From the IMG/VR virus record IMGVR_UViG_3300011445_000018, positions 1 through 64,000 of that record: a stretch of 64,000 nucleotides of DNA; one strand, written 5' to 3'. Each line of letters opens with the position of its first letter. Position 1 is the stretch's first letter. Positions 42,366 through 42,475 of this stretch are shown piece after piece. The position numbers and the translations under genes were made by a program. The notes under the pieces are model-generated. The model worked only from the letters and a program-made list of their open reading frames with translations, was not told the DNA's origin and ran no database searches. This DNA comes from a virus.

Positions 42366-42475
42366 CACTTTTCGGGGCAACTAGGCCCATACTAACCTAT
42401 CAGGGGATGGTTGCTTTGGCTGTTTTAGCCTGTTAAAATGTCCAAGGGAGCCATCCCCACAAACAAGGAAACCAC

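Follow-up and report, generated by a model that had tools for sequence, protein, structure and literature searches.

An uncultured freshwater phage carries an operon of homologue-free genes along which a motif is repeated. The lone antisense copy of this motif most likely pairs with the forward copy adjacent to it, giving one long RNA hairpin, and probably does not serve as a hub for all copies in the operon. The window that we analysed is a stretch of 64,000 nt within a 72,895-nt record, and the copy, GGGGATGGTTGCTTT, is read at 42403-42417 on its plus strand as the sole reverse copy of the motif in the entire record. As the preliminary description of this DNA had stated, its reverse complement is identical to the forward copy at 44234-44248 at all 15 positions; the copy nearest to it, at 42444-42458 (AAGGGAGCCATCCCC), agrees at 12 of 15. 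The complementarity to this near neighbour continues beyond the motif, and both the identity of its non-Watson-Crick pairs and the strong asymmetry between the two strands point to pairing in the plus-strand RNA, which supports the earlier suggestion that the antisense copy pairs at the level of RNA.

The antisense copy is real and non-random. A search with AAAGCAACCATCCCC on both strands, allowing up to three mismatches, gave 13 matches against 1.52 expected, a number reached in none of 100 shuffles, and the matches free of mismatches were the antisense copy (minus) and 44234-44248 (plus). The remaining copies in the block differ from AAAGCAACCATCCCC at 1-3 positions, such that 12-14 of their 15 positions pair with the antisense copy even when wobbles are left out. 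With at most one mismatch, the core GCAACCATCCC occurs 11 times forward and once in reverse in the whole record, whereas the reversed pattern, used as a control, occurs 0 times in either direction; for AACCATCC the counts are 12 forward and one reverse. The conserved block extends over only about 17 nt, with variable stems on either side. One further forward copy, at 55712-55726, lies inside a thymidylate synthase gene of the minus strand and is probably a chance match.

The local hairpin has 25-nt arms and a 6-nt loop (Table 1), and the arms form 19 Watson-Crick pairs, 4 G-U pairs and 2 mismatches, that is a helix of about 23 bp. As plus-strand RNA the segment folds with -31.3 kcal/mol (z -5.84; none of 200 shuffles as good), and as minus-strand RNA with -19.1 kcal/mol (z -2.15), a difference of 12 kcal/mol in favour of the plus strand. 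Outside the motif, 9 of 10 positions still pair (10 nt; binomial p 0.00097), and only 213 of 200,000 random pairs of 10-mers drawn from the block do equally well. All four transition-type departures from Watson-Crick pairing in the hairpin are G-U and none is A-C (p 0.06); two of the three differences between the first sense copy and the consensus are A-to-G changes at which pairing is kept as G-U. The nearest partner had been described as one of the weaker matches, which is correct for the motif taken by itself and does not hold for the whole arms: because the complementarity runs past the motif into the 25-nt arms, the local duplex (-30.9 kcal/mol) is as strong as those with the best distant copies (-32.4 kcal/mol for #5 and -32.1 kcal/mol for #7). 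The minimum-energy fold of the operon RNA (41960-47460, 5.5 kb) likewise places 14 of the 15 antisense nucleotides on 42444-42458 and leaves the other sense copies mostly unpaired.

Table 1. Positions in the window of the antisense copy, its predicted hairpin, and the motif copies, stems and genes discussed in the text.
Feature	Position	Strand	Remarks
Stem I1, left arm	42007..42034	+	28-nt long-range stem enclosing ORF 42048-42365
ORF, 105 aa	42048..42365	+	enclosed by I1; without homologues
Stem I1, right arm	42374..42401	+	ends 1 nt before the antisense copy
Antisense motif copy	42403..42417	+	first 15 nt of the hairpin 5' arm
Imperfect 56-nt hairpin of plus-strand RNA	42403..42458	+	arms 42403-42427/42434-42458, 6-nt loop
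Sense copy #1, degenerate (AAGGGAGCCATCCCC)	42444..42458	+	hairpin 3' arm; ends 17 nt before the ATG of ORF 42476
First motif-led gene, 68 aa	42476..42682	+	directly downstream of the hairpin; codon score 0.27 per codon
Other 11 sense copies	42758..46901	+	all intergenic, most directly after a stem
Sense copy starts	42758, 42980, 43349, 43674, 43967, 44234	+	
Sense copy starts, continued	46020, 46132, ~46301 (partial), 46537, 46891 (partial)	+	
Sense copy #7	44234..44248	+	exact 15-nt complement of the antisense copy; best long-range competitor
Long stems	42770-42791/42960-42981; 44251-44281/45750-45780	+	start at or just after a sense motif
Long stems	46036-46061/46105-46130; 46145-46170/46276-46301; 46549-46573/46865-46889	+	start at or just after a sense motif
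Divergent sigma-70-family factor	61716..62360	-	phrog_351 E 3e-4; Sigma70_r2 E 8.2e-4, below cut-off
NYN-domain protein, predicted endoribonuclease	62650..63129	-	PF01936 E 2.1e-19; TIGR00288 below cut-off

The hairpin stands at the head of a plus-strand block of about 41.8-47.4 kb, an operon of phage genes that have no or almost no homologues, with complete ORFs that each carry their own ribosome-binding site. The block is most likely transcribed as one long RNA, since none of the 12 junctions holds a sigma-70-like site (15 promoter-like matches in the region against 15.7 expected) and a single strong plus-strand terminator lies at the block's end (47525-47564). Stems would divide this RNA into units of about 95 to 1,500 nt, comprising genes and structured RNAs, with a single-stranded linker bearing AAAGCAACCAUCCC between one stem and the next. 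The stems are of two types, namely short hairpins of 8-10 bp and seven long helices of 22-31 bp, among them several that surround an entire gene or a non-coding insert; 7 of the motif copies come directly after hairpins of -7.6 to -17 kcal/mol. Pooled over the seven long stems, there are 159 Watson-Crick, 15 G-U, 2 A-C and 7 other pairs, and the probability of 15 or more G-U among the 17 G-U and A-C positions is 0.0012, an excess pointing to selection on the plus-strand RNA. Counting inverted repeats of at least 22 nt within 2 kb at 84% complementarity or more, with a stricter seed that misses the 46145 and 42403 pairs, we found about nine in the 64-kb window, of which five are long stems of the block and one is a pair formed by its duplicated junction hairpins. 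The ORF within stem I1 has a Shine-Dalgarno-like AAGGGGA, which a local CCCC/GGGG hairpin (42031-42042) can mask; since it has no homologue and its codon score is ambiguous (0.03 per codon), its coding status rests on its length and the ribosome-binding site.

Several other kinds of element were considered for the block and set aside. Among the Rfam families, self-cleaving ribozymes included, nothing matched beyond weak miRNA-like and other chance similarities (E at least 0.18, far below the gathering scores), the intron models gave no match on the block, and tRNA-like units were dropped. A pseudoknot between the loop of the upstream hairpin and the motif would have 3-4 bp in 4 of 6 units, not beyond chance, and of the local partial anti-motifs, TGGTTG just upstream of #4, #6 and #7, only two are independent.

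Given this arrangement, we consider the chances about even that the antisense copy functions as the cis-acting arm of a local RNA hairpin, either a mask or a processing stem. The slot after the first long helix, at the array's head, is where a sense motif would be expected; it holds the motif's reverse complement instead. Paired with the sense copy 27 nt downstream, this antisense copy would create a helix of about 23 bp, 17 nt short of the first motif-led gene's start codon. Such a hairpin might conceal the first sense copy from the factor that reads the motif as a single strand. It might also, or instead, be a cleavage site for a host double-strand-specific nuclease of the RNase III type, and other long stems may likewise serve as cleavage sites; in either role the hairpin would fix the first gene's 5' end or how strongly it is expressed. 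Its perfect agreement with the consensus is best accounted for if the antisense copy arose as an inverted copy of a junction module consisting of the motif plus an arm, the sense partner having later drifted by A-to-G changes that were tolerated through G-U wobble.

A helix of about two turns between cistrons, as found here, is the kind of stem that RNase III cuts. RNase III sites lie between the cistrons of the T7 early genes, and the 16S and 23S rRNAs are flanked by stems. The phage block resembles these RNAs in being a polycistronic transcript punctuated by stems of about two turns, and the rRNA stems also enclose a whole product; unlike the block, the T7 sites are local hairpins without an adjacent conserved single-stranded motif or an antisense copy, and cleavage in the phage block is a prediction. 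As to the factors involved, we can only guess that nucleases act on the motif, namely host RNase III or the phage NYN-domain protein; the latter is inferred to be a candidate for acting on the single-stranded motif. A phage-encoded RNase III was not found in the record.

Some features of the antisense copy speak against a purely local reading. It is closer to the consensus (15/15) than to its local partner (12/15), and selection for the local helix alone does not predict a perfect consensus match. It also abuts stem I1 with a spacing of 1 nt, just as sense motifs abut their stems, and when the minus strand is read, the order at I1 is motif, one nucleotide (T) and arm, which is the layout of a sense unit, so that all six long-range stems follow a motif. 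Such regularity is no less compatible with an inverted unit or a promoter than with the local hairpin.

An inverted module, possibly acting as a leftward promoter, is the main rival to the hairpin, although we regard it as unlikely on the whole. The motif would here be a phage-specific promoter, recognised by a sigma-like factor or an unseen polymerase, and a unit at 42417-42007, made up of motif, arm, a 339-nt insert and arm, would point leftward and yield a clamped RNA antisense to ORF 42048-42365; this unit and the first rightward promoter would stand back to back. Read in reverse complement, 42374-42417 does give motif, T, arm, as in 5 of 5 sense long-range stems; a perfect consensus is what would be expected of a working promoter; and stem I1 has the highest Watson-Crick fraction of the stems (26 of 28 positions) with a balanced 1 G-U and 1 A-C, as would be expected if both strands were transcribed. 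The motif lies 17-19 nt from the ATG in 6 of 9 coding units, and the phage carries a sigma-70-family protein (TIGR02937, E 8.7e-9, 35.2 bits against a cut-off of 42.9). On the other side, the block of about 17 nt has no conserved second element, and the pairing of the long stems begins at the motif's last bases, so that the RNA must already contain the motif's 3' end. The four G-U pairs and the asymmetry of 12 kcal/mol require a plus-strand RNA that reads through the antisense copy. In addition, some 60 kb of minus-strand genes, the expected targets of a phage sigma factor, lack the motif, the unit is without a credible minus-strand ORF, and a T7-type polymerase was not found, in a search in which the control genomes were silent too. 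Known promoter types did not suit the motif: a sigma-70 promoter has no match at the junctions, TTGTTA as the -35 box of an ECF-type two-box promoter lies anywhere from 7 to about 50 nt from the motif (judged by eye), and a sigma-54 promoter fails for lack of a GG-N10-GC fit (also by eye).

The antisense copy might also be a relic, left when recombination between junction modules put one module in backwards, with the palindrome tolerated and the pairing a by-product. Recombination or duplication does appear to have homogenised the junctions, with 98% identity over 48 nt between 43936-43983 and 44203-44250; homology also links the hairpin's 3' arm with the 46522 junction, and the perfect consensus suggests a recent copy. 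We nevertheless hold this to be quite unlikely, as all four transition-type differences between the arms are G-U and not A-C and the pairing extends past the motif, both of which suggest selection on the helix, and the sequence is identical in 4 metagenome runs. The PeSL cassettes of T4-like phages offer a precedent, as they are described, in the parts considered here of PMC2839356, as recombining in like manner and as having modules that look homogenised by recombination. Recombination among such cassettes gives rise to insertions, deletions or mini-circles. They share with the phage block a repeated intergenic stem-loop with a conserved sequence and a Shine-Dalgarno before small ORFan genes in a plastic region (PMC2839356, PMC4122927, in part), an order of stem-loop, element and Shine-Dalgarno that we find here too. 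Unlike the PeSL, which by the same partial accounts conserve about 100 bp including the stem and carry a sigma-70-like promoter, the elements here conserve about 17 nt that are not sigma-70-like, and the stems vary; an inverted PeSL forming a hairpin with its neighbour does not appear in the parts of PMC2839356 considered. A -35/-10 promoter is lacking at the phage junctions, where the ATG follows the stem after roughly 32 nt, too short a space for one, and many of the stems are long-range helices of 22-31 bp around whole genes.

The preliminary description had proposed that the antisense copy is one docking site for which many selectors compete by mutually exclusive long-range pairing, as in Dscam, and this reading has to be corrected because the strongest evidence favours the local helix. 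In exon 6 of Dscam, a docking site and selector sequences choose among alternative exons during splicing. The phage block does contain one site complementary to many downstream sites of the same strand; unlike in Dscam, there are no introns or splice sites, the ORFs are complete, and the local partner forms the favoured helix. In a narrower form of the idea, the antisense copy would exchange its local partner for a distant copy, chiefly 44234, and close a 1.8-kb domain that holds the first five of the motif-led genes together with one non-coding unit and fits without gaps between helices I1 and 44251/45750, local and long-range pairing being the two states of a switch. Besides its exact complementarity to #7, the antisense copy forms duplexes of -21.4 to -32.4 kcal/mol with the eleven other block copies, and those with #2, #4-#7 and #11 (-29 to -32 kcal/mol) are comparable to the local one. 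Within the full operon RNA, forcing it onto #7, #11 and #5, the three distant copies tried out of 11, cost 4.7, 10.0 and 14.7 kcal/mol, respectively, and the smallest of these gaps is within model error for a 5.5-kb RNA. Moreover, in a 2.3-kb RNA ending at 44300, before the 45750 arm, the ensemble puts 14.6 of the 15 antisense nucleotides on #7 and 0.2 on the local partner, and the thermodynamic preference is therefore context-dependent.

Even so, we find the long-range clamp improbable. The full-length minimum-energy fold is local, and pairing with the neighbour continues for 10 nt past the motif. The energy model sets no penalty on kilobase loops and so flatters long-range pairs, and during transcription the local helix forms first, the next copy being 341 nt farther on. 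Extra complementarity between the flank of copy #11 and the right arm of I1 (z -3.06; 4 of 500 shuffles, uncorrected) is lost after correction for 11 tests (~0.09), and elsewhere the block shows no excess of partial antisense words, with 13 other 6-mers where 11.4 are expected. Mutually exclusive pairing would also have no known outcome to select, since nothing like splicing takes place in a phage operon. A cellular mRNA in which a 14-bp end-to-end pairing controls ribonuclease access may serve as a model for the stems that enclose genes on the flanks of the antisense copy; there, in contrast, a single interaction in one mRNA is involved, without a repeated motif or an antisense copy.

We further speculate, while judging it improbable, that the antisense copy is part of a two-state switch: it would mask copy #1 co-transcriptionally and then either swap to #7, closing the 1.8-kb five-gene domain, or, after release, pair in trans with every single-stranded motif, which would turn the linkers into dsRNA stacked on the stems for a host double-strand nuclease. 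The trans route taken on its own, in which a released antisense fragment pairs with each single-stranded motif, the linkers become dsRNA continuous with the stems and RNase III cuts the junctions, seems highly improbable to us. Its appeal lies in the presence of one antisense and 11-12 sense copies on the same strand, in the single-stranded state of the sense copies between stems in the predicted fold, in duplexes of -21 to -32 kcal/mol and in the established precedent of the tracrRNA anti-repeat and RNase III (PMC3737331, PMC6546382, in part). Yet the antisense copy lies within the operon and between two stems, no promoter-like or terminator-like site surrounds 42403-42460, the antisense copy is buried in a stable hairpin, one antisense is made per 11-12 targets, and 15 bp are short for RNase III. 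CRISPR loci with a tracrRNA, as presented in the parts considered of the same two sources, resemble the block in that one antisense element is complementary to each direct repeat nearby and the duplexes are substrates of host RNase III. In contrast to them, the units here are genes or structured RNAs of 95-1,500 nt instead of uniform spacers, the complementarity covers 15 nt, and the antisense copy is tied up in a local hairpin, with no separate transcript. No such small transcript is predicted in the phage block, nor is Cas9 or Cas12 with a regular array seen, and family scans of the larger ORFs of the window, which did find replication, packaging and RNA-metabolism genes, revealed no Cas protein.

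Very little credence can be given to a site acting at the DNA level, whether for shufflon-like inversion, as had been raised earlier, or for a DNA-binding protein such as the ParB-box protein of the array, with 42403/42444 as the nucleation or crossover point. An inverted pair does head a direct-repeat array, and the 471-aa cargo protein shares a ParB-box (KYRI.GHRRH) with a phage ParB-like protein (E 3e-4). Both the G-U bias and the asymmetry between strands indicate RNA instead, and inversion would need a longer segment than the 26 bp that separate the inverted copies. The earlier remark that no recombinase is visible extends to the whole 72.9-kb record (about 80% complete), in which neither a serine or tyrosine recombinase nor a Y1 transposase was detected: Resolvase, Phage_integrase and Y1_Tnp gave 0 matches, against matches in 12, 14 and 6 of 14 control genomes, respectively. 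The contigs from 4 metagenome runs, among which there are 0 sequence differences, are colinear and hold no inversion joint within 41.8-47.5 kb, keeping in mind that contigs drop rare variants; inversion is accordingly disfavoured. An apparent joint from 40795 to 48000 on 'opposite strands', considered as an inversion of the block, was traced to cross-mapping of a 38-nt inverted repeat whose partner lies at 48099-48136.

No RNA run is among the 24 runs listed for the phage, and some runs contain only 9-50% of the region's words. Arrays related to this one were sought in several ways. The region 41000-47000 had no blastn match among GenBank phages, and no core copy (at most one mismatch) was found upstream of the terminase in 12 terminase relatives (46-69% identity), although in 10 of the 12 only 0.3-4.5 kb of contig lies before the terminase and the equivalent region is mostly missing. 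Five whole relative records and seven further loci held no clustered strand-specific 9-mer of the motif's kind. Among 5.8 billion proteins, 2 are homologues of the 471-aa cargo protein, and neither this protein nor its alignment matched anything in viral, metagenome and genome contigs or GenBank phages; the homologue search with ORF 42048-42365 matched only the ORF itself. The motif as a 14-mer has at least 117 matches in public collections, all of them single and by chance. A two-core pattern matched 2 viral contigs and 36 metagenome contigs, none of the 38 with blastn similarity to the phage; those viewed in context (both viral and 10 of the 36 metagenome matches) were without the junction layout, and the remaining matches had the regular spacing of coding domain repeats. 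A 19-mer of another repeated element matched 2 unrelated contigs.

The early regions of phages, rich in orphan genes, house functions of host takeover and anti-defence, and how their expression is organised is little known outside model phages. The block described here is an unusually explicit RNA architecture, with a single-stranded motif between stems, genes within helices of 22-31 bp, and an antisense copy that makes the first junction a long helix. If the hairpin is indeed a mask or a nuclease site, it would offer a simple handle on the reader of the motif. Long-range or trans pairing, if true, would represent a novel form of RNA-guided processing of viral messages, and the two-state switch, if true, would amount to anti-repeat-guided processing of phage mRNA, that is, a tracrRNA-like logic without CRISPR.

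The antisense copy of the repeated 15-nt motif (GGGGATGGTTGCTTT, 42403-42417) opens a 56-nt hairpin, I14, making up the initial 15 nt of its 5' arm. The 3' arm combines the first sense copy with the flank preceding it and shows homology to the 46522 junction. Between the arms there are 19 Watson-Crick pairs, 4 G-U pairs and 2 mismatches, and of the 10 nt past the motif 9 are also paired (p 0.00097; only 213 of 200,000 random 10-mer pairs from the plus-strand block paired as well). As plus-strand RNA the hairpin reaches -31.3 kcal/mol (z -5.84; none of 200 shuffles folded as well), compared with only -19.1 kcal/mol for the complementary-strand RNA of the segment. 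The first sense copy differs from the consensus at 3 positions, 2 of them A-to-G changes that keep the pairing as G-U. The hairpin stops 17 nt short of the ATG of ORF 42476 and, at ~23 bp, is in the size class of the other long stems, but its loop has 6 nt, whereas the other stems enclose inserts of 43-1,468 nt, in many cases an entire gene.

Allowing up to 3 mismatches, the 15-mer matches the whole window 13 times against 1.5 expected, a count equalled in 0 of 100 shuffles; across the entire record its 11-nt core, at no more than 1 mismatch, has 11 forward occurrences and a single reverse one, and a reversed-pattern control has none in either orientation. The antisense copy is complementary to 44234-44248 without a mismatch and to the copy nearest to it (42444-42458) in 12 positions out of 15, so that the lone, exactly matching antisense copy of the preliminary description is borne out. 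Every sense copy of the array, from 42444 to 46891, is intergenic, and an extra copy at 55712, inside a minus-strand gene, is probably a chance match. Partial antisense words elsewhere in the plus-strand block show no enrichment. The 6-mer TGGTTG, part of the antisense motif, occurs at 43343, 43944 and 44211 (2 of the 3 cases being independent), in hairpins immediately 5' of the copies at 43349, 43967 and 44234, where a small local switch is possible through pairing with either the hairpin 3' arm or CAACCA of the motif.

Most sense copies directly adjoin an upstream stem, some of them a short hairpin of 8-10 bp (-12 to -17 kcal/mol), others a long inverted repeat by its right arm; exceptionally, the copy at 46020 begins 4 nt past a stop codon, behind a weak fold (-7.6 kcal/mol). 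Each copy is followed by a ribosome-binding site or, at most 3 nt away, by the left arm of the next long inverted repeat, and the motif-to-start-codon spacing is 17-19 nt in 6 of 9 coding units. There are six long-range pairs, with arms of 22-31 nt. With a stricter seed, the 64-kb window has about nine inverted repeats of at least 22 nt, at most 2 kb apart and at least 84% complementary, five of which are long stems of the block and one more a pair of its duplicated junction hairpins. The six long-range pairs and the 56-nt hairpin together comprise 159 Watson-Crick, 15 G-U, 2 A-C and 7 other positions, and the excess of G-U over A-C (15 against 2, p = 0.0012) points to selection of the pairing in a single, plus-sense strand, i.e. 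in RNA. No sigma-70-like site was found at the motif junctions and the only strong plus-strand terminator lies at 47525-47564, which fits one polycistronic transcript. In the minimum-energy fold of the 5.5-kb plus-strand RNA, the sense motifs remain largely single-stranded, linking one stem to the next; searches of the block against Rfam families, tRNAs and ribozymes gave no matches. At 42031-42042, a small CCCC-AUAA-GGGG hairpin able to mask the Shine-Dalgarno site of ORF 42048 competes for the same CCCC with I1, the long stem around that ORF, which suggests that closing the I1 clamp frees the ribosome site. An entirely hydrophobic 17-codon micro-ORF (42679-42732, MMTIAILLVLLVLLLLV) shares an ATGA overlap with the stop codon of ORF 42476-42682 and immediately precedes the hairpin 5' of the copy at 42758.

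The antisense copy begins 1 nt past the right arm of I1 (42374-42401), and on the minus strand the order motif, 1 nt, arm, 339-nt insert, arm reproduces exactly the layout of the five sense long-range units. Since, in addition, it is a perfect consensus facing a degenerate sense partner (42444-42458), the element resembles a junction module inserted in reverse, and such an inverted module is the likely origin of the antisense copy. The same layout and perfect consensus also agree with the main functional rival, namely that the motif is a promoter and its antisense copy a leftward one making antisense RNA to ORF 42048-42365, and the phage has a gene for a divergent sigma-70-family protein. However, conservation extends over only ~17 nt without a second promoter element, no minus-strand operon carries the motif, stem pairing starts at the last bases of the motif, so that the RNA already contains them, and the G-U pairs of the hairpin require plus-strand RNA reading through the antisense copy.

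The docking/selector reading of the preliminary description, modelled on Dscam, fares less well, as it fails on its defining outcome, exon choice, and the minimum-energy structure of the full 5.5-kb RNA pairs 14 of the 15 antisense nucleotides locally. Forcing the site onto distant copies there costs 4.7 (44234), 10.0 (46537) and 14.7 kcal/mol (43674), in a test covering these 3 of 11 distant copies. With short flanks, the local duplex has -30.9 kcal/mol and those with other copies -21.4 to -32.4 kcal/mol, the strongest distant ones being 43674 (-32.4) and 44234 (-32.1), and in the ensemble of a 2.3-kb RNA ending at 44300, 14.6 of 15 antisense nucleotides lie on the 44234 copy and 0.2 on the local partner. 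Local and long-range energetics thus appear close in these models, with evidence on both sides; as the fold model neither charges for closing a kilobase loop nor accounts for the order of synthesis, real RNA would favour the local helix. The I1 right arm and the flank of the 46537 copy show additional complementarity (z -3.06, 4 of 500), whose significance was lost after correction for 11 tests. A tracrRNA analogy fails on both the separate transcript and the effector.

A shufflon-like inversion is disfavoured: the earlier remark that no recombinase is visible holds, as searches for serine recombinases, tyrosine recombinases and Y1 transposases, positive in 12, 14 and 6 of 14 control genomes, found none encoded in 72.9 kb of this ~80% complete genome, and contigs from four runs on different samples are colinear with the window at 0 differences, although contigs cannot reveal rare variants and a rare inversion could escape notice. 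A lone 'opposite strands' contig joint was rejected as an inversion, being cross-mapping of a 38-nt inverted repeat (40758-40795 / 48099-48136).

The record, from an uncultured phage, is linear, 72,895 nt long and ~80% complete, the window covering its first 64 kb, and the region is present with 0 differences in contigs of freshwater-sediment and groundwater runs. The products of the minus-strand module beyond 47.6 kb include DNA polymerase, helicase, ligase, thymidylate synthase, a ParB-like protein and an HNH endonuclease. Family searches with the small genes of the plus-strand block gave no matches; of two block genes used in homologue searches, ORF 42048-42365 had none found and the 471-aa cargo protein (44296-45711, inside a 31-nt stem) only 2, at 56-58% identity, among 5.8 billion proteins. 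The latter shares a ParB-box-like KYRI.GHRRH with the phage ParB-like protein (pairwise E 3e-4). The terminase is at most ~25% identical to those of cultured phages, and the contigs of 10 of 12 terminase relatives end 0.3-4.5 kb upstream of the terminase gene, so that the equivalent of the block may lie at a genome end or assembly break point. One relative, a 69-kb record, carries a dispersed 15-nt palindrome-like word (TGATTTAGTAAATCA) and a variant, whose 10-mers occur 25 times forward and 18 in reverse.

Other repeats surround the block. A second repeated element (core TTGTCAAAAAAGTGTGCTAAAAT, containing the extended -10-like TGCTAAAAT) is arranged as inverted pairs, one at the divergent junction left of the block and another, with 75-nt arms 83% complementary, around a lone plus-strand ORF (48163-48387); it may be a host-type early promoter or operator, and two viral contigs with an exact 19-mer of it proved unrelated. 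Two overlapping sigma-54-like matches (GGCAY-N5-TTGC) stand back to back on opposite strands at 41595-41614, in the divergent intergenic region upstream of the block, a suggestive placement, the window count (2 against 1.2 expected) not being significant. Between modules, a non-coding tandem heptamer repeat (ATGAACG, ~11 copies, 41333-41422) adjoins nested palindromes (41004-41103, 41162-41224, 41255-41319), and many metagenome contigs break in this region. A dispersed 10-mer, TCCAGCGTTC (minus-strand reading GAACGCTGGA), has 9 forward copies and 1 reverse from 40463 to 59117, and its palindromic copy at 47470-47486 also scores as a minus-strand terminator-like hairpin. Nested inverted repeats at 909-1165 (inner 44-nt arms 954-997 / 1071-1114, 91% complementary; outer 30-nt arms 909-938 / 1136-1165), directly upstream of a plus-strand primase gene, are another large stem heading a plus-strand block.

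Table. Positions of the hairpin, the motif array and related features
Feature	Position	Strand	Details
Hairpin I14	arms 42403-42427 / 42434-42458	+	6-nt loop; inverted-repeat search
Sense motif copies	42444 (weak), 42758, 42980, 43349, 43674, 43967, 44234, 46020, 46132, ~46301 (partial), 46537, 46891 (partial)		
Inserts of six long-range pairs			105-aa ORF; 168-nt non-coding; 471-aa ORF; 43-nt + 105-nt non-coding; 83-aa ORF
Block of small genes	~41.8-47.4 kb	+	5.6 kb; between two minus-strand modules
gpA-type large terminase	36700-38340	-	
Portal gene		-	
Replication and nucleotide-metabolism module	from 47.6 kb onward	-	
Second repeated element	40635-40685, 40757-40807, 48067-48141, 48487-48561		
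Divergent sigma-70-family protein	61716-62360		214 aa; TIGR02937 E 8.7e-9, below cut-off; Sigma70_r2 E 8e-4
NYN-domain RNase (predicted)	62650-63129		E 2e-19

Among known systems, the RNase III sites of the T7 early region and the processing stems of rRNA are functional analogies to the stems described here. The closest described system to the array is the PeSL cassette of T4-like phages, in which ORFans are flanked by an early promoter together with a stem-loop and a Shine-Dalgarno site (PMC2839356, PMC4122927); its defining sigma-70 promoter was not found in this array, and the gene-enclosing helices present here are absent from PeSL as described there. The 5'/3'-UTR pairing of hbs mRNA is a further functional analogy (PMC5737220).

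We propose that the antisense copy acts in cis within one stem-punctuated message, a mechanism that, taken as a whole, has about an even chance of being correct. The block would be a single long message punctuated by stems and single-stranded motif, whose helices might be read by host RNase III and whose unpaired motif might be read by the phage NYN-domain RNase or another RNA-binding factor. The gene for this RNase lies in a cluster of RNA-metabolism candidates (62650-63129 and 63187-63714, on to record position 64544), together with a Cys-rich 175-aa protein with weak zinc-finger-like matches and a DHH phosphoesterase (phrog_4771, E 5e-80). By pairing with the adjacent first motif copy, the antisense copy would either hide it or offer a two-turn helix to a double-strand-specific nuclease, and the hairpin would hence set the 5' end or the level of the first motif-led gene.
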